Origin: an uncultured Halanaerobiales bacterium
GTDB lineage: Bacteria > Bacillota > Halanaerobiia > Halanaerobiales > M55B127
Direction of reading: 5' to 3'
Length of the DNA stretch: 64,000 bases
NCBI GenBank assembly: GCA_964430875.1
Contig: CAYSHP010000007.1
Span: 1,736-65,735, forward strand
The notes under the pieces were generated by a model. The model saw only the letters and a program-made list of their open reading frames with translations. It made no database searches and was not told where the DNA came from. Position 1 is the first letter of the stretch; each line of letters opens with the position of its first letter. Of this stretch, positions 4,504 through 34,601 are shown in pieces. Made by a program: the position numbers and the translations under genes.

Positions 4504-7014
4504 TTATCTTTTTTTAACAAAAGCAAAATCATAAACTGGTTCACCATAATTATCTTTAATTACTCTGACCTTTATATTTACATCTATATATTCTCCATTT
4601 TTCTTAATGTACTTTTTATTCAATTCAAAGTTATCTAGTTCTTTATTAGTTATCTTATCCATATACTCTTTATTTTTTTGATTGTCCTCTTTCTTTGTAA
4701 TATCAAAATGAGTCATTGTTTTTAACTCTTTTTCTGTATAGCCTAGTAATTCACAAAATTTATAATTAACTTCTATTATATTCCCCTTAAAATCAGAAAT
4801 TATAATTGCAATTGGCATTTCATTAAATACAATTCTTTTTTTATTTCTGACTATGCTTAATTTTCTTTTGAAATATTCTTTTTTATTTTGTTTTTTCATC
4901 TCATACATTTTCTCATCTGATATTTTAATTATTTCATTCAAATCCTGTTTATATGACTTTTTGATTGCAATACCGATCGATATGCTGAAATCAATATCTT
5001 TTATATCTATTTTTTTGATATTAATTGCTATTCTATTTTTTATTTTTTTAAGATTATCGTATTTTATTTCAGGCAAGATAATAGAAAATTCATCTCCGCC
5101 TATACGACATATAATGTCTGATTCTCTAACCACATTTCTTAAAACATCAGCTACTCTCTTAATATATTTATCACCTATACTATGACCATACATATCATTT
5201 ACTGATTTTAAATTGTCAATATCAGCAGTAATAACACCTATCGGTAATTTGCGTGATTTATTTATTCTCTTAACTGTATCTGCAAAATATGCCCGATTAT
5301 ATAAACCTGTTAATTGGTCCTGTATTGAAAGATACTTTATTTTATCTTTTTCTTTTTTCCTTTGAGTTATATTTCTTACAAATGCATAAAAGATAGGGCT
5401 AGCTTTTTCATTTATATATGTTTTATTAACCTCTACATCTATTACCTTTCCATTTTTCTTTTTATATTTAGTTTCAAAAAGTTCTTTCTTCTTTTCAATT
5501 ATTTTTTGTAAGCGTGCCTGTAAACCTTTTTTAGTTTCTTTAATATCAATATCTGAAATTTTCATATGCAATAATTCTTTTTCATTATAATCAACCATAT
5601 CTATAAAGGATTTATTAACTCTTATAAATTCACCCTTTTCATTAATTATAAAGAAACCATCTCCAGTTGTTTCAAGTATTTTATCAAGCTTATCTTTTTG
5701 TTCTTGCAATTTTTCATCTTTTATTCTTTTTTCTGTTATATTTTCATGTGCGATTACTGCACTGTATTCACCTTCTCCAACAAATGGAGTTATCCTCATT
5801 TTAAACCATCTTTTTTTATAAGGTGAATGACAAGGATATTCTATAGAAAAAGTGTCTGCCTTACCCTTAATAACTCGTTTTATACCGTCATAAACAATCC
5901 CTGCCTCTTTAGACCATTCACCTTCAGAATTTTTACATACTTCTAAATAATTTGTGCCTACTCCGCTTTCTTCTTCTTTTAAACCATTATTTACAGCAAA
6001 ATTTTCCCAAGCATTATTTACATATTTAATAAATCCTTTTCTATCTAGAACAGCTATATTTGCCGATAAGGAATTTATTAAGGATTGGCTTAATTCTTTT
6101 TCTTTTATTAAATTTTTCTCATATTTTTTCCTTTTAGAAATGTCCCTGGATACACTTAATACCATTTTCTTTTTATCTAAATTCACAATTTTTGAATTAA
6201 TCTCAACAGGTACTTTTTTGCCATTTTTAGTTTTATGAATAGTTTCAAAGATGTGTTCTTTTTTCTCTTCTAATTTTTTTATATTTTCTTTCCGCTTTTC
6301 TATAGTTTCTGATGTTATTACATCTAGTTCTTCGGGGCTAAGTTTTAAAAGTTCATCTTTAGTATATCCTAATTTTTTACAGGTAGCCTCATTAACATCA
6401 ATAAATGGTCCTAATTTATTTTCCTTGCTCTGAGGATAGTATTCATGGAAGAATATCGGGTCATTAATACTATCAAGAATCATTTGGGAATCATGCTTTA
6501 TTTGTTCATAGTCTTTTATTCTTTCATTTAAAATACTATTAAGGTATATATTTTCCAGCTTATATTCAATGATCGTTTTAAATTCTTTCATTAGATCTTT
6601 TTCTTCTTCTTTGAAATTTCTTTCTTTATTATCAAAGACACAAAAAGTCCCAAATGTTTTACCGTCAGGTTTTAAAATCGGTACTCCTAAATATGATTTC
6701 AAATTATATTTTTGGGACTGAGGAAACTCTAAATTATTTTTGTTTTTATAATTACTAATTTCTATTAATCTCTTTTCCTTTAATACTTTTTCACAATAAT
6801 GACCAGCCATTTTATATCTATCATTTTTTTTAAAGGGATTATTATTGGAGTTGTTTGTACTAATGATTACTAAATTATCATTATCGCGTTTTGTAATCAT
6901 AGCAATATTAACTTTTAAAAGGCTGACAATTAAATCTGCTATCTTTTGCCATTCTTCTTCCACTAATAATAGCAACTCATATTTATTTTTATTATTGGGT
7001 CTTCCACTAAACAT
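4504..7014 (-). CDS. Cytoplasmic multi-PAS diguanylate cyclase (GAF-like, PAS x3, GGDEF, C-terminal PAS)
   Basis: The ORF is 4504..7023. I prefer ATG at 7014 (GAGGTG RBS 6 nt upstream) over the GTG at 7023. Carries RIGGDEFSIIL with an RESD I-site. An extra PAS domain follows the GGDEF domain. Confidence 0.88.
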   Translation of the reverse strand: MFSGRPNNKNKYELLLLVEEEWQKIADLIVSLLKVNIAMITKRDNDNLVIISTNNSNNNPFKKNDRYKMAGHYCEKVLKEKRLIEISNYKNKNNLEFPQSQKYNLKSYLGVPILKPDGKTFGTFCVFDNKERNFKEEEKDLMKEFKTIIEYKLENIYLNSILNERIKDYEQIKHDSQMILDSINDPIFFHEYYPQSKENKLGPFIDVNEATCKKLGYTKDELLKLSPEELDVITSETIEKRKENIKKLEEKKEHIFETIHKTKNGKKVPVEINSKIVNLDKKKMVLSVSRDISKRKKYEKNLIKEKELSQSLINSLSANIAVLDRKGFIKYVNNAWENFAVNNGLKEEESGVGTNYLEVCKNSEGEWSKEAGIVYDGIKRVIKGKADTFSIEYPCHSPYKKRWFKMRITPFVGEGEYSAVIAHENITEKRIKDEKLQEQKDKLDKILETTGDGFFIINEKGEFIRVNKSFIDMVDYNEKELLHMKISDIDIKETKKGLQARLQKIIEKKKELFETKYKKKNGKVIDVEVNKTYINEKASPIFYAFVRNITQRKKEKDKIKYLSIQDQLTGLYNRAYFADTVKRINKSRKLPIGVITADIDNLKSVNDMYGHSIGDKYIKRVADVLRNVVRESDIICRIGGDEFSIILPEIKYDNLKKIKNRIAINIKKIDIKDIDFSISIGIAIKKSYKQDLNEIIKISDEKMYEMKKQNKKEYFKRKLSIVRNKKRIVFNEMPIAIIISDFKGNIIEVNYKFCELLGYTEKELKTMTHFDITKKEDNQKNKEYMDKITNKELDNFELNKKYIKKNGEYIDVNIKVRVIKDNYGEPVYDFAFVKKR

Positions 7015-7064
7015 AAAATACACCTCTTTAAACCATATTTCAATTTAATTTTTTCGGTTAAAAA

Positions 7065-9332
7065 TTAAAATATGTCTTTTAAACTAGAATTTATGAATCG
7101 TTCAACAATCTTTGGTGAAAATTGAGTTCCCTTATTAGAAATTAACTCTTCTAAAGCTTCCTTTTTACTTAGATTGTTCCTGTAAGGTCTTTCAGAAGTC
7201 ATGGCATCCCATGCATCTGCTACCGATAATATTTGCGAAATGATCGGTATTTGATCTCCTTTTATACCCTTTGGATAACCATTGCCATCCCATCTTTCAT
7301 GATGATATAAAATATATTCAGCTATTTCCCTTAATTCTATTGAATTCTTCAAAGTTTCATATCCCCAGACCGAATGTTTTTTAATAATAAAATATTCATT
7401 TTCCGATAATTTACCTTTTTTATTCAAAATATTTTTAGGTATTATCATTTTACCTATATCGTGTAAAAGTCCAGCCCAATAAGTCATCTCTATGATTTTT
7501 TGGGAAAGATCCATTTCTCTGGCAATTTCTCTCGAGATATTTGCTACTGTTTCATTATGCCCTTTTGTATAATCATCATGTATTTCGAGTAAATTTGTTA
7601 AAGAAATGATAACCTCATCTGTAAACTCTCTTTGCAATCTATTATAATTTTTTAATGTTAAATACGAAGAAGCCAATCTTTCTATAGAATATAAGGTCCT
7701 CTGGGCATTTTCTGTAAACTCTTCGCTACTATCTTTTTTTATTTCTATAGACATTCGACCAATTATGTTATCATTAACTAATATATTGACTAGTAAAGAA
7801 TTTTTTATTTTTTTTATATTATTTTGGTAATGATCATACAACTTAATAGGTGCTTTATCCTTATCAATAATATTGTTATCTTCAATTTCTTTTATATAAA
7901 ATTTATCATGATTTTTCATATGTATTCTCTTAATATCCAATTTATTTATATTATCAATATTATAACCTACAGCATCAATGAATTTAGCTTTACCATTTTC
8001 AAATAAGTAAATCAACCCATGGTCTGCTTCCGGGATTAATTCCATAGATTTTTTCAAAACTATCGATAAAAACTCTTCTTTATTAGTATCAGTTCCTATT
8101 TTTGAGATTAATTCAATGATATTTTCTAGGTTATAACTCAATATATCTAACTCTTTATAAGTTCTTTCTAAATCTTCATTCATAGCTCTTATTTCTTCAT
8201 TATTTGCCTCAAGCTCCATATATTTTTCTTGTAACTCATCGTTGGCTTCCATTATTTTCTTTTGTTTTTCTTTTCTATCAGAAATATCTCTACTAATAGC
8301 CAATAAATATTTTTTTCCGTTTTCTCTATAAGCATTCAATTTAGTTTCAACCGGTATGCTTTTTTTATTCTTATTAATATGAACTGATTCATAGCTGAAT
8401 TTATTTTCTTTAAATAGTTTTGTAAAAATTTTTTGATGAATTTCTTCAACTATTCTTTCAGGTACTATTTTAGAAGGACTAATTTCTTTAAATTCTTCTC
8501 TAGTATAGCCTAATACTTCACAAGCTTTATCGTTTACTTTTATAAATTTACTGTCTTCATATTTATCTTGAATTTCTAGTAAAAAAACTTCGTCATTAAT
8601 CTTGTTGAATAAAAACTCATATTCATTATTTTTTGACTTTAATTTACGCTTAAATTTACTTTCTCTTTTTTTAAATTCCTGTATGTTTTTAAGCCATGTT
8701 TTAATTTTATACTCAACAATTCTATTGTTTTTAAACCCATCAGGCTCAATATAATAAGGATTTTCATACAGATTGTCCTTCCAAATTATATAATGATGTA
8801 ATTCAAGAATTGATTTAATAATTTCATTATCAAACTTATTCAAATTATATCTACATAAAGCAATTACAGGATAATTATCAAAAATTTCATCATTCAACAA
8901 CCACTCATATTTAATTAGTTCTTCTTTCCCTCTTTTATAGTTTAAGACCCAACTTAGTTCTCCTGTAATACTAAGCCCAGTATAACCATCTTCAATAGCT
9001 TGGGAAGATAAATTTTTCAAAAGTGTTATCATCTTATCTGCTTCAAATTGATCACTTAAAGCATAAGTTTCTTCTTTAGATAAAAATTGTAATTGTCTGG
9101 TTTTTATTAACTGACTAAAATCATCTCGTTCTTTTTGCAGTTCACTATTTATTAACTTTGTATTTGCATCCCCTTGTATATATAAACATATTTCTCCCCG
9201 TTTTAAACTGTTTTTTATAAAAGAAACAACTGGATTTAATGTTTCCTTTTCTTCCTCGTATAATAATACTGAATGGTCGCCCGGTTCTAATTTATCCATG
9301 TTCTCCATTTTTCCAAAATGAACATTCTGCAC
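7065..9332 (-). CDS. MEDS-PAS-GAF-HD-GYP c-di-GMP phosphodiesterase
   Basis: 755 aa. GTG start with an AGGGGG RBS. The N-terminus GDHSVLLYEEE..GEICLYI..LSITGELSW..ALCRYN matches the MEDS pattern. The HD-GYP core is intact (LLHDIGK, HHERWDGNGYP). Confidence 0.88.
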   Translation of the reverse strand: MQNVHFGKMENMDKLEPGDHSVLLYEEEKETLNPVVSFIKNSLKRGEICLYIQGDANTKLINSELQKERDDFSQLIKTRQLQFLSKEETYALSDQFEADKMITLLKNLSSQAIEDGYTGLSITGELSWVLNYKRGKEELIKYEWLLNDEIFDNYPVIALCRYNLNKFDNEIIKSILELHHYIIWKDNLYENPYYIEPDGFKNNRIVEYKIKTWLKNIQEFKKRESKFKRKLKSKNNEYEFLFNKINDEVFLLEIQDKYEDSKFIKVNDKACEVLGYTREEFKEISPSKIVPERIVEEIHQKIFTKLFKENKFSYESVHINKNKKSIPVETKLNAYRENGKKYLLAISRDISDRKEKQKKIMEANDELQEKYMELEANNEEIRAMNEDLERTYKELDILSYNLENIIELISKIGTDTNKEEFLSIVLKKSMELIPEADHGLIYLFENGKAKFIDAVGYNIDNINKLDIKRIHMKNHDKFYIKEIEDNNIIDKDKAPIKLYDHYQNNIKKIKNSLLVNILVNDNIIGRMSIEIKKDSSEEFTENAQRTLYSIERLASSYLTLKNYNRLQREFTDEVIISLTNLLEIHDDYTKGHNETVANISREIAREMDLSQKIIEMTYWAGLLHDIGKMIIPKNILNKKGKLSENEYFIIKKHSVWGYETLKNSIELREIAEYILYHHERWDGNGYPKGIKGDQIPIISQILSVADAWDAMTSERPYRNNLSKKEALEELISNKGTQFSPKIVERFINSSLKDIF

Positions 9333-9614: not shown

Positions 9615-10073
9615 TTAGTGTAAGTTTTTAATTTCTTTAAGTTCTTTATTCTTTAAAACATTACTGGATTCAATAATTATAATTAATTCATCATTTAAAT
9701 TTGCAATCCCGTTAATATAATTAGCATCGATTTTTTTGGTTATTTCAGGGGCATCATTAATGTCTTTTTGATTTAAACCATTTATTCCAATAACTTCTTC
9801 CACCATAAGACCAACCAATTCATTATCGACAGATATGATAATTATTTTATTGTTATCTATATTAATATTTAAATTAAACTTCTTATCTAAATTAATGATA
9901 GGAATTATCTGTTCCCGCAAATTGATAACTCCCTCCACATAAGAAGGTGCTTCCGGGATAAAAGTTAGTTCCTCAGTCGTAATTATCTCCCGGCTGTCCA
10001 TCACATCAATACCATATTTTTGTCTTCCTAGTGCAAAAATTACATGCTGTCTATTTAGATCTTTTTCAGGCAT
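9615..10073 (-). CDS. cheW: Chemotaxis coupling protein CheW
   Basis: 152 aa with a CheW-like fold (FALGRQKYGIDV..REII). The ATG overlaps the upstream cheW stop. RBS GAGGAGG. Confidence 0.9.
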   Translation of the reverse strand: MPEKDLNRQHVIFALGRQKYGIDVMDSREIITTEELTFIPEAPSYVEGVINLREQIIPIINLDKKFNLNINIDNNKIIIISVDNELVGLMVEEVIGINGLNQKDINDAPEITKKIDANYINGIANLNDELIIIIESSNVLKNKELKEIKNLH

Positions 10074-10572
10074 TTTTTACCTCCTCTGATGGATTATTGT
10101 TATCAAAAAGTATATCTTCTATATTAATAATTACAATCAATTTCCCTTTAGAAGTGAATACACCCTTAATATATTCTTCTTCTAAACTCTGCTTTCCATC
10201 AGTAGTTTTCTCAATATCATCAGAATTAATTGAAAGAACTTCTCTGACATCATCTATATATAATCCTACCATTATTCCATCAATATTTATTATGATTATC
10301 TTATTATTGTCCTTTTTTTTATGATTTTTCACTAATCCTAATTTTTCTTTTAAATCAATTACCGGTGTAACTTTACCTCTGATATTTATAACACCCATTA
10401 CATGTTTAGGTGTATTGGGTACATTTGTTATCTTAGGCGGTTTTATTATCTCTTTCGCTTTTTCTAACTGCAGTCCATAATATTCTTGTTCCAATTTGAA
10501 AGTAAGATACTGGTTTAAACTACCTATATTTGTTTCTTTTTTATCAAGATAAATATCATCTTTTTCTGACAT
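10066..10572 (-). CDS. cheW: Chemotaxis coupling protein CheW (second copy)
   Basis: 168 aa. YLTFKLEQEYYGLQLEKAKEII..GVINIRGKV is typical of CheW. Confidence 0.9.
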   Translation of the reverse strand: MSEKDDIYLDKKETNIGSLNQYLTFKLEQEYYGLQLEKAKEIIKPPKITNVPNTPKHVMGVINIRGKVTPVIDLKEKLGLVKNHKKKDNNKIIIINIDGIMVGLYIDDVREVLSINSDDIEKTTDGKQSLEEEYIKGVFTSKGKLIVIINIEDILFDNNNPSEEVKNA

Positions 10573-10585
10573 TAGAAATCCCCCT

Positions 10586-12580
10586 TTAGGCTATATCACG
10601 AACATCTAATATTAAAGCTACTTCGCCATCCCCAATTATTGTAGCTCCACTTATATTTTTTACATTACCCAGATAATCACTAAGTGATTTAATTACTATC
10701 TCTTGTTGATATAGTAATTCATTAACTATCAATCCCACTTCTTTACCACTAGATTTAACTATTACAACGGACATCTCTTCCTGCTCAGTATAATTATTAT
10801 CTCCCACTTCAATATTTAAACTCTTACGGCTGTCTATAAGGGGTATAGTTTCATTTCTTAAAACTATCACATCATTACCCTTTACCTGTCTGATTTCCTT
10901 AGATTTAATTTTTAAGGTTTCACTTATCGCATTAAGCGGTATTGCAAATACTTCCTCATCTATTTTTACCATAAGGGCATCTTGAATAGCTAATGTTAGA
11001 GGAAGTGATATAACAATCTTAGTACCCTCTTCCTTTTCAGATTTTATGTAAACATCTCCATCTAAGCTTTTTATAGTTCTTTTAACAACATCCATTCCTA
11101 CTCCACGACCAGAAACATTTGAGACCTGGTCAGTAGTGCTTAAGCCCGGTTCAAAGATAAGCTGTAATTTTTTCTCTCTGTCCATTTCTTCAAGTTCTTT
11201 TTGGGTGATCAATTCTTTTTCAACAGCTTTAGCTGTCAATTTATCTATATTAATCCCTGAACCATCATCTTCTACTTCTATAATTATTTCGCTGCCTTTT
11301 TGATAAGCCTTTAACTTTATTTTCCCAGTTTTATCCTTACCCTTTTTAACTCGAGTTTCTGGTTTTTCAATACCGTGATCAACAGCATTTCTCAGTAAAT
11401 GGGTTAAGGGATCTCCCAGTTCATCTATAATAGAACGGTCTAGCTCTGTTTCTTTACCTTTGATTAAAAAATCAATTTCTTTTTGGCTGTCCTTTGATAG
11501 ATCGCGAACCATGCGGGGAAAACGATTAAACATAACTCCGATCGGTTCCATTCTGATCTGCATTACTGTATGATGCAGTTCCATGGTTACCCTATCAAGT
11601 TGAGGCAGTATATCTTTAAATCCTTCCGAATTTATGTTCAGTGCCTCTAAGCGGGTTTTATTAATAAGTAATTCACCAATCATATTCATTAACTTATCTA
11701 ATTTCTTGATTCCCACCCTCACTGTAGAAGATACTGCAAACTTAGAAGAACTACTGTCTTCATTTTTTGCTTTTTGTTTTTCATTATCTGATTTCATATT
11801 CTTATCTGTTGATTCAATATCCATAGCAGTAATATTTATTGCTACTACATCTGTAATATTACTAAGATTATTAACTATATCTTCTCTATTTTCATTTGAA
11901 ATTAATATCATTTTAACTACATCTTCTTCTATTTCTGCTTCATCTACACTTTTTATATCTGGATCTGATTTAAAGATATAGCCCATTTCTTTGGCTTCTT
12001 TCAAAACCATAGAAGCCCTAACTTGTTTAAACTCAGTAACTTTATCTAATTCAGCATTAACAGCATAAACTGTATCTAGCTCTTTTTTGTTTTCTTGAAT
12101 ATTATTTTTTTCAACCTCATTTAAAGTTAGCCTTTTTGAATCAAAGTTATCATTATTATTCTCTATATCTTGATTAGAAGTTTCTTTATGTGCTTTTCCC
12201 TCTTCTATATTATTTTCCAGTTTATGCAAATATACTTCTAAATTAAAATCATCTGTACCCTCATCTTTAATCTGCTTTACTATTTCTTCTATGTAATCTA
12301 TTCCTTCAAATAAAAGGTCTATAATTTCTGTAGTCACATCTATTTTATTATTTCTAACCTTATCCATTAAATTTTCAATTTTATGTGTTAACTCTGTCAA
12401 TACATCAAATCTCATAGTTGCTGACATGCCCTTTAAAGAATGGGCTGCTCTAAATAATGAAGCAACTACTTCTTTATCTTCGGGGTTGTTTTCTAATTTC
12501 AAGATATTATCATTTAATACCATGATGTATTCTTCTGATTCTGCGAAGAACATATCTAAATATTCATTATTATCACTCAA
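10586..12580 (-). CDS. cheA: Chemotaxis histidine kinase CheA
   Basis: 664 aa. Hpt motif AAHSLKGMSATM, HATPase motifs (DDGSGI, GRGVGMDVV) and a C-terminal CheW-like domain. TTG start with a GAGGAGG RBS. Confidence 0.95.
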   Translation of the reverse strand: MSDNNEYLDMFFAESEEYIMVLNDNILKLENNPEDKEVVASLFRAAHSLKGMSATMRFDVLTELTHKIENLMDKVRNNKIDVTTEIIDLLFEGIDYIEEIVKQIKDEGTDDFNLEVYLHKLENNIEEGKAHKETSNQDIENNNDNFDSKRLTLNEVEKNNIQENKKELDTVYAVNAELDKVTEFKQVRASMVLKEAKEMGYIFKSDPDIKSVDEAEIEEDVVKMILISNENREDIVNNLSNITDVVAINITAMDIESTDKNMKSDNEKQKAKNEDSSSSKFAVSSTVRVGIKKLDKLMNMIGELLINKTRLEALNINSEGFKDILPQLDRVTMELHHTVMQIRMEPIGVMFNRFPRMVRDLSKDSQKEIDFLIKGKETELDRSIIDELGDPLTHLLRNAVDHGIEKPETRVKKGKDKTGKIKLKAYQKGSEIIIEVEDDGSGINIDKLTAKAVEKELITQKELEEMDREKKLQLIFEPGLSTTDQVSNVSGRGVGMDVVKRTIKSLDGDVYIKSEKEEGTKIVISLPLTLAIQDALMVKIDEEVFAIPLNAISETLKIKSKEIRQVKGNDVIVLRNETIPLIDSRKSLNIEVGDNNYTEQEEMSVVIVKSSGKEVGLIVNELLYQQEIVIKSLSDYLGNVKNISGATIIGDGEVALILDVRDIA

Positions 12581-12623: not shown

Positions 12624-12980
12624 TTATATTATTTTATCAATTGCCTCTTTAATTCTCTTTTTGTTAAAAGGTTTCACAATAAAATCTTTAGCCCCAGCTT
12701 CAATTGCTTCTATTACAAGTGATTGTTGACCCATTGCAGAACACATTATTACTTTGGCATCAGAATCAAATTCCATTATTTTTTTTACTGCCTCGATTCC
12801 ATCCATTTCCGGCATGGTTATATCCATTGTTACTAAGTCCGCTCCATGTTTTTGATATGATTCAAAACCTATTTTCCCATTGGCTGCTTCATCTACAATC
12901 TCATGCCCATTATTTTCTAATATGTTTTTTAAATTCATTCGCATAAAAGCTGCATCATCTACTATTAATATTTTTGCCAC
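12624..12980 (-). CDS. cheY: Chemotaxis response regulator CheY
   Basis: 118 aa single REC domain (ILIVDDAAFMR, LVTMDITMPEMDG, KPF). Confidence 0.95.
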   Translation of the reverse strand: MAKILIVDDAAFMRMNLKNILENNGHEIVDEAANGKIGFESYQKHGADLVTMDITMPEMDGIEAVKKIMEFDSDAKVIMCSAMGQQSLVIEAIEAGAKDFIVKPFNKKRIKEAIDKII

Positions 12981-13039: not shown

Positions 13040-15112
13040 TTATATTTCAAATTGCTCAACTTTACTAGAAAGCTTTTGTGCCATCTCTGAAAGATTTTCT
13101 GATGCTTTAACAATTTCTTCGGTTGAGGCACTTTGTTCTTCACTGGAAGCAGCTACTTCTTCTGCATTACTAGATGCCTGTTCACTAACTGAGGCAACTT
13201 CATCTACAGCTTTTTCTACTTGTGAACTCTTCGCAGCCATATCTTCTGCTGCCTCTGTGATATCTTTAATAAGGCTTCTTAGACTAACTGCTGCAGAATC
13301 AATCTCACCAAAGGAATTCTCAGTTGTTTTAATTGCATCTACGCCATCTTCAACTGCCTCTTCTGCTTTATTCATTTGTTTTATAGTATCTTGAACACCA
13401 TCTTGTATTTCATTGATCAAAGAAGCAATGTTTTCTGTTGCATCAGAAGATTCTTCAGCAAGTTCTCTAATCTCATCTGCAACCACACTAAATCCTCTGC
13501 CAGCTTCTCCTGCTCTAGCTGCCTCTATTGCAGCATTTAAAGCAAGTAGATTGGTCTGGGCCGAAATACCATTAATCAGTTCTACAATATCACCAATTTG
13601 TTCTGATAATTTGCCCAAGTCATCTATCCTATTTGATACAGCCTGTGATTGATTTTTAACTTCTCTGACTTGGTCGATTGAATTATTTATTGAGGTATTA
13701 CCTTCTTTAATATTATCCATAACATTACCAGCTTTTTCATCCATTTCTCCAGACTTTTCTCCCACATTATCAATTCTACCGGCTAAATCTTCAACATTCC
13801 CTTTTGTTTCTTCAATCTGAGCAGTCTGCTCTTCAGCCCCGGAAGCAACTTCTTGAATAGCAGTTCCTACCTGTTCAGCGGAGGCTGAAATCTCTTCACT
13901 GGAAGCTGAAAGCTCTTCACTAGAAGAAGAAAGGTCACTAGCGATTTCTGCCACATCTTCAATTACACCTCGTAAATTATCCTGCATTTTATTTAATGCA
14001 TTTGCTAAAGTCCCTATTTCATCCTCTGAATTAACATCAATTTTTTTAGCTCTCAAATTACCTTGAGCAATCTCTTTAGCAAACTCTACTCCGAGATTAA
14101 CAGGTTTAGTAATACTTCTAGTTATTATAAATGCGATAAGGGCTCCAATTATTAAAGCAACAATTAAAGCTATAATTAAATTTCTAATTGCCGCTGTTTG
14201 CCCCTCTTCCATTTCGGCAAGTTGTAAGTCCTGTAATTCATTTGCACTAGCCAAAAATTCATCAGCTTTAGTTTCCATAGTTGCTTTATTTTGATCTTTG
14301 GTTAGTTCTATTTCATGAATTTGTTGGAATACATTTTCTGTATTATTCAATTGATTTAATATACCCTCTGCTGTTTTAATATCTTTTTCCTCATTAAAGG
14401 AATTTTTAAGTTCCGTTGCTGTTTCTTTAGCAGTTTGGAAAGCAGCTAAAGTACTGTTTGCATATCTTTCCTGCCCTTCTGCATCAGCAAGGTTAATTAT
14501 GTAATTTCTCTCCTGTCTTCCTATATTATCAACATTTTGAACCAACTGATTAGCAAGTAATAAAGTTTGAAGTTTTTGTTCGATATCCCTTATTTCTACA
14601 TTTCCCATTCCACTATTCATATCAGCTATTAGTTCGTCATATTCTTCCTTTTGGGCTTTTTCTAAACTCTCTATTTGACTTTTTAGTTCTTCTTCTACAG
14701 CCACAAATTCAGTTCTAAGTTCATTTTGCTGAAAAAGAGAGTCCGCATAAGAAATAGCGGCTGTTTTATATTGATTAGCAAGAGACTGCATGTTATCAAT
14801 CCTTTTTTTATCAGCCTCTTCTTGCATTAGTTCTTTGGTTTTATCACCGCTTGCCACCATAGAACTTACCATCTGGTCTATATTATCAATATATATTTGT
14901 TCTTCTTGTAACATGAAATTTTTCTCATTTTGTCTAATTTCCAATGTCGTTTCAGCAAAACCAGCTGCATCATTAGAAATCTGAACGTCATGATCGACAT
15001 TATTTAAACCCTGATAACCCACTAATGCCATAATACCAGCTATCAAAATTAAAATTGCAAATCCTCCACCAATTTTAAACCCTAAATTTAAATTCTTAAA
15101 AAATTTTAACAA
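13040..15112 (-). CDS. Methyl-accepting chemotaxis protein (4HB-type sensor, HAMP, MA domain)
   Basis: 690 aa with two TM segments, HAMP and the conserved signalling tip ([33 protein letters not shown]). TTG start with a GGAGGAG RBS. Confidence 0.95.
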
Positions 15113-15410
15113 TATTACTCCTCCTTTTAATTATTAGATCATTTATTATTTATCCCAATTTAATTAATTGGGTTTACAACCAATATATTTATATGTTTTG
15201 AAAATTGTGAAATTGAAAACAATTATTAATATTTGTAATATTTATTTCGTAATATATATTAGATCTATTAAATGTGCTGAATGGCTTTTTAGACAATTAT
15301 TCTCCTCTATGATAGTTATAGCTCTTAAATACTTCATTTAAGTATAAATATTAATTAATTTATATATTTATTATTTTCCTGATTATGTTGATAATATTAC
15401 TTAAGTTTGT

Positions 15411-15527
15411 AAATAAAAAAATATGGCCCTTCTTTTTGGCCATAGTATCTATGGTAACCTGGCAGTCTATTTAAAATAGACCCATAGCTTTGCGTCCTTT
15501 TCTTACGAAAAGTTTGCCTTTTTCATC
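15411..15527 (-). promoter_or_regulatory. c-di-GMP-I (GEMM-I) riboswitch aptamer plus intrinsic terminator expression platform
   Basis: The minus-strand RNA carries GGCAAAC-hairpin(GUAA)-GGACGCAAAGCUAUGGGUC...GACUGCCAGGUUACCAUAG. This is followed by UAUGGCC-N9-GGCCAUA and U7. It matches the class I c-di-GMP aptamer core as I remember it (Vc2). Confidence 0.85.
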
Positions 15528-15788
15528 ATATTATTTGATTTTATTATTTTTTATATGGTATTATAATAACATCTATTATAATAAATAACTTATTTTTCCC
15601 TATAAACTTCCTAACTCTTAAAAATTCTTTCATATTATATCACTTTATCTATATTTATTTTATAACAAATATTATAAAATTTCAGTAAAAAATTATAAAA
15701 ATATGTTCTTTATAGTAACTTTTTGTAAAATATTATCAATTTTTAGTGGTTTTGTGTATAATGATATACAATCTGGGGGTTTTTACTT

Positions 15789-16943
15789 TTGGAATATTTT
15801 TCTTCAAGATTAAAGTTATTAAGGAAAGAAAATAATCTTACTCAAAATAAACTCGCAAATATTTTAGGTTATTCAAGATCAACAATAGCTAAATATGAAG
15901 CAGGTCAGATGATCCCCTCGGGCAGTTTTTTATATGATGTTGCAGAATATTTCGAAGTTTCATTAGACTATCTATTAGGCCGAACTAATATCCATGAAAG
16001 TTTTGGTGACTATATTTTATCAAAAGCACCTAGTATATTATTATTTGTAGACCCTAAAGATGGAAAAATAATAGACCACAGTCCCTCTGCTCTCGATTTT
16101 TACGGATATAAAAGACATGAACTTCTTAAAAAAACCATATATGAACTAAATACCCTACCAAAAGATGAAGTTAAAAAATTAATGAAAAAAGCTATTGAAG
16201 CAAAACATAAAACATATTTTTTTAAACATAAACTGTCTAATGATAAAATAAAAGAAGTAAAAGTAACAACTACAAAAGTTACCATCAATAATAGAAAGGT
16301 AATTGGTTCTTTAATTCAAGACCTTAGTATTAGTAATAATAAGAAAGAAGATAATAAACTATCTAAAAATTTATTTCAATCAATTAATAATATAGCTTTA
16401 CAAAATATTCATCATAAAGACCAACATATTTATAATGTCACTAAACTTGCTGCTGATATTGGTAAACATCTCTTTTTATCCACAAAAGATCTAGAAAATC
16501 TAACATTTGCTAGTCAGCTTCAAAATATTGGAGAAGTTAATATACCCCACCATATTATTAATAAGCCAAACATATTAAATGAAAATGAATATTCAATAAT
16601 AAAAAGCCATCCTGTTTTTAGTCTGCAATTACTTAAAAATACTTCTATTAATAAAAAAATAAAAAAAATTATATTACAACATCATGAAAGATTAGATGGT
16701 TCTGGATACCCGAATAATTTAACGAAAAATGAAATTTTAATAGAAGCACAAATTATCGGAGTAGCTGATGTAATAATTGCTATGATATCTAAAAGGCCTT
16801 ACAGAAAATCATTTGATTTAGAAGATGCTTTAAAAGAAATTAATAAAAATAAAGGTATAAAATATAATAAAGAAATAGTAAATATTTGTAATCATATCTT
16901 AAAAAATACTAAATATAAACCTGAATTTAAAGCCAACTATTAA
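15789..16943 (+). CDS. XRE-family HTH / PAS / degenerate HD-GYP protein (candidate c-di-GMP-binding regulator)
   Basis: 384 aa. TTG start with a GGGGG RBS. XRE HTH (LTQNKLANILGYSRSTIAKYEAG) and PAS. The HD-GYP domain has QLQNIGE in place of LHDIGK but retains HHERLDGSGYP. Confidence 0.85.
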   Translation: MEYFSSRLKLLRKENNLTQNKLANILGYSRSTIAKYEAGQMIPSGSFLYDVAEYFEVSLDYLLGRTNIHESFGDYILSKAPSILLFVDPKDGKIIDHSPSALDFYGYKRHELLKKTIYELNTLPKDEVKKLMKKAIEAKHKTYFFKHKLSNDKIKEVKVTTTKVTINNRKVIGSLIQDLSISNNKKEDNKLSKNLFQSINNIALQNIHHKDQHIYNVTKLAADIGKHLFLSTKDLENLTFASQLQNIGEVNIPHHIINKPNILNENEYSIIKSHPVFSLQLLKNTSINKKIKKIILQHHERLDGSGYPNNLTKNEILIEAQIIGVADVIIAMISKRPYRKSFDLEDALKEINKNKGIKYNKEIVNICNHILKNTKYKPEFKANY

Positions 16944-33052: not shown

Positions 33053-33391
33053 TTAATTACTGTTGTCCTCTGCTTTATAGGTTAATATTTCTACTTTTTC
33101 TACTGTTACTAATCCTTCTTTTACCATCTCTTGTACAGTAGGTATTATATTGTCTATCTTTTCTGACTTATCAACCACCTCAATCATAATAGGAAGATCT
33201 TCAGATAGTTGCCAGATATGAGAATTTTTAATTCTACTGTTTAAACCAAACCCTTCTATTCCGGAAATTGCAGTTGCTCCAGCTAATCCCATTTCTTTAA
33301 ATTTTTTTATCAATGCTCTGTAGAGTGGTTCACCTTCCAACATATCATTTTCGCCAATATATATTTTTAACACTTTACCTTCTCCAACCAT
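33053..33391 (-). CDS. DUF190 (PII-like fold) protein
   Basis: The ORF is 33053..33433. The start is moved to ATG at 33391 (RBS AAGGATGGTGA), which removes the overlap with the antiporter. KIYIGENDMLEGEPLY..GLAGATAISGIEGFG is typical of DUF190. Confidence 0.8.
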   Translation of the reverse strand: MVGEGKVLKIYIGENDMLEGEPLYRALIKKFKEMGLAGATAISGIEGFGLNSRIKNSHIWQLSEDLPIMIEVVDKSEKIDNIIPTVQEMVKEGLVTVEKVEILTYKAEDNSN

Positions 33392-33407
33392 TTTATCACC
33401 ATCCTTT

Positions 33408-34601
33408 TTATTTAAGCCAATTATTACCCGCAAATTTAATACCGACTGCCCCCAAAGGTGCAGTAATCACAATAGCTAACACTGCCATAGCTAAAATTAA
33501 TTCACCCGATTCAACTCCAACTGCTATAGGTACTGCCCCAATTGCTGCTTGAACTGTCGCCTTTGGTGTATAGGCTATCACACAAAAAAATCTTTCTTTT
33601 AAATTTAAAGGGGTATTAGTTACAGAAATTAACACACCTATACTTCTAGCCAAAAGACCAACTGAGATAATTAACAAACCTTTCAAACCAGTTTCAATAG
33701 CCAGATAAACATCCACCTCAGCTCCCACAAGTACAAAAAGCATTATTTCTGCAAAAACCCATATCTTATTAAATTTAGAAGCAAGTCTTGTTCCTACTAA
33801 TTTATAACGTTCCTGAAGTACAAATCCTATTGTCATAACCCCAAGAAGAGAAGCAATTGGCACAATATCTTTTAAATAATCTTCTAAGCCAGTTAATAAT
33901 ATTGCGGATCCTAATATAATTAAAGCTTTTTTTGTATCTCTAAAGTGATATTTCTTAAATAGATAAACCATAAATAAAGCTATAAAAAATCCAAGCAGAA
34001 CTCCTATAATAATGGATAAGGGGACATCCATTATCTTTTTTGTAATATTTATTTGTTTCCCTCCATAAATACCCATGAATGTAGTAAAAATTGTAATAGC
34101 AACTACATCATCAATAGAAGCTCCAGTCAATATTAAAGTGGGTATTCCTTTATTAGTTCCCTTATTTTTATTTATCAAATTTAACATCTGGGGAACTACC
34201 ACAGCCGGTGAAACAGCTGCAATAATAAAAGCTAATATTCCTGCCTCCACGAAAGATAACTCAAAAATATAACTTGCAACTAATAAAATTGAAATCCCTT
34301 CTAAAATACCCGGTATAAAACTTAGTCTAAAAGCAGGAAGACCTACTTTTTTGAGCGTTTCTTTTTCAATACCTAAACCTGCTCTCAACAAAATTACAAT
34401 TAAGGCAATCTTTCTTAAATCGGCTGATATATTTAATATTTCATTACTGATAATACCAAATCCATAAGGACCAATTAAGATTCCCAAAATTAACATCCCC
34501 AGTAAACCCGGTAACTTAATTTTATCAAATAATCTATTAAAACCCAATCCCAATAAAATAATTACTGCTAAACTAAAGGCCATAACAACTTCACACTCCA
34601 T
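33408..34601 (-). CDS. Cation:proton antiporter (Na+/H+ exchanger family)
   Basis: 397 aa polytopic protein with an LPGLLGMLILGILIGPYG N-terminus. The start could instead be ATG at 34583 (MAFSL). Confidence 0.85.
   Translation of the reverse strand: MECEVVMAFSLAVIILLGLGFNRLFDKIKLPGLLGMLILGILIGPYGFGIISNEILNISADLRKIALIVILLRAGLGIEKETLKKVGLPAFRLSFIPGILEGISILLVASYIFELSFVEAGILAFIIAAVSPAVVVPQMLNLINKNKGTNKGIPTLILTGASIDDVVAITIFTTFMGIYGGKQINITKKIMDVPLSIIIGVLLGFFIALFMVYLFKKYHFRDTKKALIILGSAILLTGLEDYLKDIVPIASLLGVMTIGFVLQERYKLVGTRLASKFNKIWVFAEIMLFVLVGAEVDVYLAIETGLKGLLIISVGLLARSIGVLISVTNTPLNLKERFFCVIAYTPKATVQAAIGAVPIAVGVESGELILAMAVLAIVITAPLGAVGIKFAGNNWLK

Follow-up and report, generated by a model that had tools for sequence, protein, structure and literature searches.

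A class-I c-di-GMP riboswitch, most likely a transcriptional OFF switch, predicted upstream of an accessory chemosensory cluster in a Halanaerobiales bacterium

Introduction

Does the intergenic region in front of a chemotaxis gene cluster in an uncultured Halanaerobiales bacterium specify an RNA that senses c-di-GMP and, if so, would the ligand turn the downstream genes on or off? Examples of class-I riboswitches in front of genes for motility and chemotaxis go back to the discovery of the class. Such switches are known upstream of motility and chemotaxis genes that include MCP genes in the B. cereus group (PMC6366702, PMC11218506), and a class-I switch lies upstream of an MCP gene both in B. 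anthracis and in the B. cereus group (PMC6366702). The locus studied here lies on the minus strand of a 64,000-nt stretch of DNA, the whole of which we refer to as the window. A first-pass annotation of its letters had proposed a class-I c-di-GMP riboswitch of the OFF type, located about 300 nt upstream of mcp-cheY-cheA-cheW-cheW. Taken as a whole, the analysis described below points, with fair assurance, to a canonical class-I riboswitch whose transcript reads towards MCP-CheY-CheA-CheW-CheW and that is most likely a transcriptional OFF switch.

Results

A c-di-GMP-I aptamer with canonical ligand-contact positions

The 113-nt RNA quoted in the first-pass annotation is an exact match to positions 15523..15411 of the minus strand, and the blocks that had been named in it (GGCAAAC, a GUAA-capped hairpin, GGACGCAAAGC and GCC.GGUUACC) are all present. 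A start at 15527 adds GAUG upstream of 15523, and the Rfam match begins at this same base. In particular, cmscan of the 64-kb window with Rfam 15 returned a single match to the c-di-GMP-I clan (CL00126), at 15527..15449 on the minus strand, which scored 71.3 bits with RF03167 against a gathering score of 59 (E=6.8e-15); a local re-scan agreed. The match is far above chance and the element is real. Its parts are the following.

15449..15527, minus strand: c-di-GMP-I aptamer (Rfam CL00126 match, positions from the alignment)
15526-15524 with 15453-15451, minus strand: P1, AUG paired with CAU (Rfam alignment)
15506-15503, minus strand: GUAA tetraloop of P1a/P1b (Rfam alignment)
15489 to 15456, minus strand: P2 (Rfam alignment)
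g15518, a15491 and c15454, minus strand: equivalents of G20, A47 and C92, respectively (Rfam alignment)
c15494 and g15463, minus strand: equivalents of C44 and G83, respectively (Rfam alignment)

The nucleotides that contact the ligand, G20, A47 and C92 in the numbering of Vc2, are G, A and C in the aptamer and thus all canonical, and the spacing of 27 nt from G20 to A47 agrees with that in Vc2 and Bc1 (PMC4744006, PMC11218506). (Note that the roles of G20, A47, C92 and C44/G83 are taken from PMC4744006 and PMC11218506.) The Watson-Crick pair between C44 and G83 is universally conserved in the class (PMC4744006); the candidates for this inter-helix pair are c15494, which lies within GGACGC, and g15463, which lies in a 2-nt bulge of the P2 3' strand. 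All helix pairs in the Rfam alignment are standard, the outermost excepted. The same alignment depicts P2 as a plain helix, with the 11-nt tetraloop receptor (CUAAG...UAUG) absent from the aptamer. It is type 1 aptamers that combine a GNRA tetraloop with an 11-nt P2 receptor; the feature is not universal. Receptor-less members of c-di-GMP-I proved to be numerous in a metagenome pattern scan, from which 119 were fetched; among these, L240 alone is of a similar style, and the gene that follows it encodes an unrelated secreted acidic protein. Judged by its sequence, the element is a receptor-less canonical class-I (GEMM-I) aptamer with a GUAA tetraloop, and we are nearly certain that the c-di-GMP-I aptamer is genuine and its binding site canonical, ligand binding itself being predicted.

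We rejected an assignment to the GEMM-Ib aptamers that sense 3',3'-cGAMP, since these need A at position 20 and the aptamer has G there (g15518). (The G20A change is said to have been recognized as the mark of 3',3'-cGAMP-sensing GEMM-Ib in 2015, in the work of Kellenberger and of Nelson.)

Two observations on other riboswitches were made along the way. At gathering thresholds the sole further Rfam match in the window is an unrelated fluoride riboswitch (RF01734; 34650-34716, minus strand; 41.9 bits, gathering score 34, E=3e-8), which lies upstream of a 397-aa multi-pass membrane protein that is cation/proton antiporter-like (33408-34601, minus strand). A 126-aa small protein (33053-33433, minus strand) comes next after the antiporter-like gene, and no CrcB-type gene was seen among the listed ORFs of the window. 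Separately, L209, L147, L136, L153, L163, L186 and similar AT-rich metagenomic c-di-GMP-I aptamers have a P1 3' strand (CCGAC) that is directly followed by U8; at loci of the L209 type, the helix that closes the aptamer may itself serve as terminator stem.

The RF03167 label and position 47

The first-pass annotation had called the element a class-I c-di-GMP riboswitch and named RF01051 as the Rfam model for a check. The clan match (E=7e-15, rounded) and the canonical contacts uphold the class; the family had to be amended in that the top Rfam model is RF03167 (c-di-GMP-I-GGC) and not RF01051. One further member of CL00126 exceeded its own gathering score in the cmscan of the window, and two were found at E<=10 in the local re-scan. 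We are almost certain that the member above its gathering score is RF01051: this score is 35 for RF01051, and canonical aptamers reach 56-87 bits with that model. When the P1 3' strand was removed from the query, RF03167 was still the best model, at 61.1 bits.

In the conserved core, the consensus sequences of RF01051 and RF03167 differ solely in GACGC-A-AAG versus GACGC-G-AAG, that is, at position 47, which lies 27 nt after the unpaired G preceding GGCAAAC, the same spacing as that of G20/A47 in Vc2 and of G11/A38 in Bc1. The GGC variant was reportedly defined in a PNAS paper of 2017, and its name presumably refers to positions 20, 47 and 92; a NAR paper of 2017 makes no mention of the variant. 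At the position in question the RF03167 consensus, GACGCGAAG, has G47, whereas the aptamer, GACGCAAAG, has A47. We ran the pattern GGCAAAC-N14-GGACGC[A/G]AAGC over 120 loci of the genome collection together with L001 and L003, which are copies of the window locus. A47 was present in 124 of the 125 matches to this core pattern, and the single match with G47 is not a riboswitch. Moreover, when Rfam was run on 18 ordinary A47 aptamers from other genomes, RF03167 ranked first for eight (L106, L016, L072, L080, L102, L088, L041 and L065) and RF01051 for ten. Note that the two models cover different structures, namely the closing helix P1 with a short P2 in RF03167 and a longer P2 that includes the tetraloop receptor in RF01051. 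An aptamer that has a clear P1 and lacks the receptor will therefore obtain a higher score with RF03167, regardless of its binding site.

That RF03167 is the best Rfam family (71.3 bits, with a gathering score of 59) might be taken to mean that the aptamer belongs to the c-di-GMP-I-GGC variant and has an altered ligand. We regard this as extremely improbable. The aptamer carries A47 where the variant carries G47, at the one core position that distinguishes them; the same family is ranked first for eight of 18 ordinary A47 aptamers; and the gain in score with RF03167 appears to come from P1 and the short P2 and not from the binding site. We read the RF03167 label of the aptamer as a scoring artefact that is not diagnostic. 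More generally, clan competition in Rfam can mislabel ordinary c-di-GMP-I aptamers as the orphan GGC variant, and automated annotation should check position 47.

Mutually exclusive hairpins downstream of the aptamer

The sequence that begins at the 3' end of the aptamer can form two hairpins.

15411..15444, minus strand: intrinsic terminator, composed of UAUGGCC (15444-15438), loop AAAAAGAAG, GGCCAUA (15428-15422), U7 (15421-15415) and AUUU (sequence, folding energy)
15440..15454, minus strand: putative antiterminator, composed of CCAUAG (15454-15449), loop AUA and CUAUGG (15445-15440) (folding)

The UAUGGCC/GGCCAUA hairpin that had been noted ahead of U7 is present at 15444-15415. It begins 6 nt past P1 and has 7 bp, of which four are G-C pairs, a 9-nt loop and a folding energy of -9.8 kcal/mol. 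A consensus terminator scan of the region made no call; the scan missed this terminator because its loop limit is 8 nt and the loop here is 9 nt. The pairing of CCAUAG with CUAUGG over a 3-nt loop is also real (-5.6 kcal/mol). It covers five of the seven bases of the terminator 5' arm, and the antiterminator and terminator are mutually exclusive hairpins. Only the assignment of CCAUAG to P2 in the first-pass annotation did not hold: according to the Rfam alignment, the segment that closes P2 is CCAGGUU, and CCAUAG combines the C92 equivalent with the P1 3' strand. This correction leaves the logic of an OFF switch unchanged.

To follow the order in which these structures become available, we folded the nascent transcript at increasing lengths, counted from 15530. 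The optimum at 74-78 nt comprises the native aptamer hairpins. At every length from 90 to 102 nt, before the terminator 3' arm exists, the optimum is the aptamer together with the antiterminator, and the terminator is optimal only with its 3' arm present, at 110 nt. P1 alone costs +1.3 kcal/mol and therefore depends on ligand. Without ligand, the terminator state (-26.2) is favoured over the antiterminator state (-22.0) by approximately 4 kcal/mol, so that read-through must be kinetic; the switch may be leaky or mostly off. In the thermodynamic optimum of the full RNA, CCAUAG is paired with an identical CUAUGG in the 5' strand of P2. This alternative pairing is probably incidental, because two of its six pairs are lost in the related locus L249 (see below). 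(A pairing between the A-rich leader and the U-tract in the full-length minimum-free-energy fold was dismissed as a folding artefact.)

Conservation of the element in a related cluster

L249, a locus from a related species that L254 matches exactly across the riboswitch, carries the same MCP-CheY-CheA-CheW-CheW cluster, with a CheA that is 85% identical, and has a riboswitch at L249:231-308 (66.5 bits, the best model again being RF03167). Compared with the window, P1b has a C-G pair changed to U-A and the tetraloop is changed from GUAA to GUGA, and in P2 a G-C pair is changed to A-U and a U-G pair to U-A. The predicted helices P1a/b and P2 are thus supported by two compensatory changes and one wobble-to-Watson-Crick change. 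In a pairwise alignment, the aptamer and platform form an island of approximately 90% identity, and the intergenic flanks have diverged, with the final ~70 nt ahead of the MCP start as the exception. The platform in L249 reads ACCAUA-UUUCC-UAUGG-CUAAAAAU-CCAUA-U8: the three mutually complementary segments are kept, and the loops and stem lengths differ. The equivalent of the antiterminator is CCAUA-UUUCC-UAUGG, the terminator has 5 bp only (-3.1 kcal/mol), and for the whole RNA the antiterminator state stands at -16.4 versus -16.0 for the terminator state. The OFF arrangement that had been claimed, in which the terminator 5' arm and the hairpin at the aptamer 3' end are mutually exclusive, is accordingly present in the window and kept in L249.

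Other relatives were examined as well. Six contigs with an identical CheW are 99.3-99.9% identical to the window and come from the same species; they show one intergenic substitution in the 701 nt compared and give no covariation signal. No riboswitch was found by Rfam or by a core-motif regular expression in three che clusters with a CheA that is 71-74% identical (L250, L251 and L253). Since the riboswitch is absent from these more distant che clusters, its association with the cluster is recent and lineage-specific. Loci with MCP homologues that are ~60% identical (L007-L009) likewise had no riboswitch, and the context there is MCP plus GGDEF; these loci are paralogue-like and uninformative. 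The MCP protein itself gave no match by exact look-up and no relative in the genome-collection scan; P0002 is a 92%-identical homologue of it. The named homologues are indicative of Halanaerobiales.

An accessory chemosensory cluster amid c-di-GMP turnover genes

The genes around the element are the following.

13040..15112, minus strand: MCP with HAMP and MCP signalling domain, 690 aa, first downstream gene (Pfam, ORF list)
12624-12980, minus strand: CheY (Pfam, ORF list)
10586-12580, minus strand: CheA with all five domains (Pfam, ORF list)
10066-10572, minus strand: CheW (Pfam, ORF list)
9615-10073, minus strand: second CheW (Pfam, ORF list)
4504-9332, minus strand: MEDS-PAS-HD-GYP and GAF-PAS-GGDEF, downstream of the che genes (Pfam)
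15789..16943, plus strand: divergent HTH-PAS-HD-GYP gene, putative c-di-GMP phosphodiesterase and regulator (Pfam HTH_3/HTH_19, PAS_9, HD_5, HD)

Pfam confirms the genes mcp-cheY-cheA-cheW-cheW, and the distance of about 300 nt given in the first-pass annotation is accurate: the MCP start codon, TTG at 15112, lies 298 nt past the terminator, and both it and its GGAGG ribosome-binding site are conserved in L249. The further claim, that high c-di-GMP would shut off a complete chemosensory module, was overstated, since the che cluster has neither CheR nor CheB, and shut-off is itself a prediction, the terminator being ~4 kcal/mol ahead without ligand. A fuller che operon, with CheB, CheR, FlgM, FlgN and FlgK, is found on another contig from the same sample. 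The MCP-CheY-CheA-CheW-CheW cluster is an accessory core chemosensory module.

The HTH-PAS-HD-GYP gene shares its intergenic region with the riboswitch, and its translation contains the motif HHERLDGSGYP. (In L249 the C-terminal end of a transposase-like ORF, L249:1-154, replaces this gene; CheY there, at L249:3033-3224, is called as 63 aa only, which may reflect a frameshift or decay.) On the other side, we found no convincing terminator between the last CheW and the HD-GYP gene. At L250 (CheA 74% identical; L250:8039-12010) the che genes are followed by GGDEF, MEDS-HD-GYP and GAF-GGDEF genes with short gaps, that before the first being 55 nt. If the transcript of the riboswitch runs into the HD-GYP and GGDEF genes, then RNA-level control by c-di-GMP would cover both a sensory pathway and the enzymes on which the c-di-GMP concentration itself depends. 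According to reviews, c-di-GMP riboswitches are rarely part of a feedback loop of this kind. We entertain, with considerable doubt, the idea of an accessory pathway without adaptation (MCP-CheY-CheA-2xCheW) that is gated by the riboswitch and linked in the genome to enzymes of c-di-GMP turnover.

Promoters and spacer

The remaining features of the intergenic region are the following.

15553..15588, minus strand: candidate riboswitch promoter with TATAAT at 15565-15560 (read from the sequence)
15642-15634, minus strand: alternative extended -10 element, TGATATAAT (read from the sequence)
15113..15410, minus strand: AT-rich spacer of 298 nt, from the terminator to the MCP start (alignment with L249)
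15182..15211, minus strand: promoter-like TTCACA-18-TATATT (consensus scan, 10/12)
15154..15172, minus strand: conserved hairpin CCCAAUU-AAUUA-AAUUGGG, ~45 nt before the MCP start codon (L249 alignment)

The aptamer of L249 also has a TATAAT, located ~19 nt before it. Note that promoter-like hexamers are common in the AT-rich window, where the consensus scan found 20 versus 9.9 expected. The spacer is ~400 nt long in L249 versus 298 nt in the window and, in the pairwise alignment, is unconserved except for its last ~70 nt. No Rfam family was detected in it, either at gathering thresholds in the scan of the whole window or at E values up to 10 over the part from 15300 to 15410. A 35-aa ORF (15189-15296, minus strand) with a GAGGAG ribosome-binding site was rejected as a gene, since L249 conserves neither of the two. 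The L249 sequence aligned to the promoter-like site at 15182..15211 is TTCAAA-17-AATATT, which scores 8/12. For the hairpin at 15154-15172, which corresponds to L249:~690-710, the stem is kept in L249 and the loop differs. It may be a 5' stabiliser of a proximal transcript or a protein-binding site. The hairpin is followed by AUAAAUAAUAAA, and GGA motifs occur here and in the MCP ribosome-binding site.

Proposed switching and its direction

Competition among aptamer P1, an antiterminator and a terminator is the commonest riboswitch design, and the element can be read in these terms. The two aptamer hairpins would form first during transcription. Without ligand, CCAUAG, which holds C92 and the P1 3' strand, would pair with the next CUAUGG to give the antiterminator, which would hold the terminator 5' arm so that polymerase reads on. 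With c-di-GMP bound, C92 would contact the ligand and CAU would close P1 with AUG; CUAUGG would then be freed, the UAUGGCC/GGCCAUA hairpin could form ahead of U7, and transcription would stop. Because the three-part arrangement is kept in a relative that also has compensatory changes in its aptamer, an OFF switch is the best reading of the locus. We consider it probable that the element is a transcriptional OFF switch, its ligand binding and direction being predicted from sequence. As to how far this control would extend, we judge the chances that the riboswitch is the main control of the che cluster to be about even.

The opposite direction has precedent, in that class-I ON switches exist, such as Bc2 (PMC6366702), in which case c-di-GMP would promote read-through. 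We consider an ON switch very unlikely here: the only complement of the terminator 5' arm is the strand that comprises the aptamer P1 3' side and C92, this strand is sequestered in the ligand-bound fold, leaving the terminator free, and neither the sequence nor the folding revealed an extended P1 or another ligand-stabilised helix able to block the terminator. More weight attaches to the idea that the aptamer binds c-di-GMP and that the platform is a near-constitutive attenuator, in which the terminator wins with or without ligand and there is little response. The terminator is favoured over the antiterminator by ~4 kcal/mol without ligand, the full-length minimum-free-energy fold includes it, and Bc1 is a precedent for a predicted switch without an expression response (PMC11218506). 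Against this, the antiterminator is the first to form and is the optimum at nascent lengths of 90-102 nt, the two hairpins of L249 are almost equal in energy (-16.4 versus -16.0), and the three-part complementarity is conserved, which a plain attenuator would not need. We regard the attenuator as improbable.

A further reading leaves the riboswitch real and has it terminate its own short transcript, the che cluster being driven mainly by a separate spacer promoter (~15211-15182). The che mRNA would in that case begin with the hairpin at 15172-15154, and the riboswitch would only trim upstream read-through or make a stand-alone c-di-GMP-dependent small RNA. The site TTCACA-18-TATATT scores 10/12 and aligns with the partly similar TTCAAA-17-AATATT of L249, the conserved stem-loop comes directly after it, and the rest of the long spacer (298 nt; ~400 nt in L249) shows no conservation. 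Yet promoter-like hexamers are common in AT-rich DNA (20 versus 9.9 expected), and the L249 version of the site is weak (8/12). The riboswitch, moreover, adjoins the same cluster in both species, and long leaders after class-I switches have a precedent in Bc1, where 220 nt separate the aptamer from the start codon (PMC11218506). A separate promoter as the main driver thus seems unlikely to us, although of these three readings it is the one we take most seriously; an OFF switch acting on the transcript that leads to the che genes is the reading we prefer.

Discussion

The element, which comes from a salt-loving anaerobe, is an ordinary one, as neither its RNA class nor the link with chemotaxis genes is new. 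That high c-di-GMP levels repress the genes for motility and chemotaxis is an established rule; the element fits this rule and therefore confirms existing knowledge and does not extend it. What it adds is one predicted c-di-GMP-I OFF switch in Halanaerobiales, from hypersaline samples, that ties the second messenger to an accessory chemosensory cluster. Possible feedback on the neighbouring c-di-GMP turnover genes is the only mildly new angle, and a neighbourhood so dense in GGDEF and HD-GYP genes is a reasonable place to seek riboswitch feedback on c-di-GMP metabolism.

The element can be compared with several known systems. Like Vc2 of Vibrio cholerae, the representative of the RF01051 type, it has a two-hairpin core with a short P1, the GGCAAAC and GGACGCAAAGC blocks, the G20/A47/C92 set, the inter-helix pair C44-G83 and a first hairpin capped by a GNRA loop. 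It departs from Vc2 in its tetraloop, which is GUAA, and in P2, a short uninterrupted helix that lacks the 11-nt GAAA-tetraloop receptor, and RF01051 is therefore out-scored by its sister model RF03167. The c-di-GMP-I-GGC variant that gave RF03167 its name shares with the element P1 and a short receptor-less P2, and differs from it in having G47 where the element has A47.

In C. difficile, each of the seven functional class-I switches works through a terminator and is of the OFF type; Cd1, located before the flgB operon, is one of them (PMC6366702). Cd1 (Cdi-1-3 of Clostridioides difficile) resembles the element in being a Firmicute class-I aptamer with a terminator-based OFF design, which for the element is a prediction, and in linking high c-di-GMP to the shut-down of motility-related genes (PMC6366702). 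The two differ in that Cd1 is experimentally validated and controls flagellar genes, whereas the element is predicted and precedes a chemosensory cluster.

Bc1, the element of the Bacillus cereus group that precedes an MCP gene, binds c-di-GMP and has two terminators and a distance of 220 nt to the start codon, with no measurable change in downstream expression (PMC11218506), and it stands as a warning that a predicted switch may not switch. Like the element studied here, it is a class-I aptamer whose distance to the start codon of the MCP gene is long (220 nt) and which is paired with terminator-based control (PMC11218506). Bc1 has two tandem terminators and translational control, whereas the present element has one terminator and a 298-nt spacer, and the unit downstream of the element, unlike that of Bc1, also includes CheY, CheA and two CheW.
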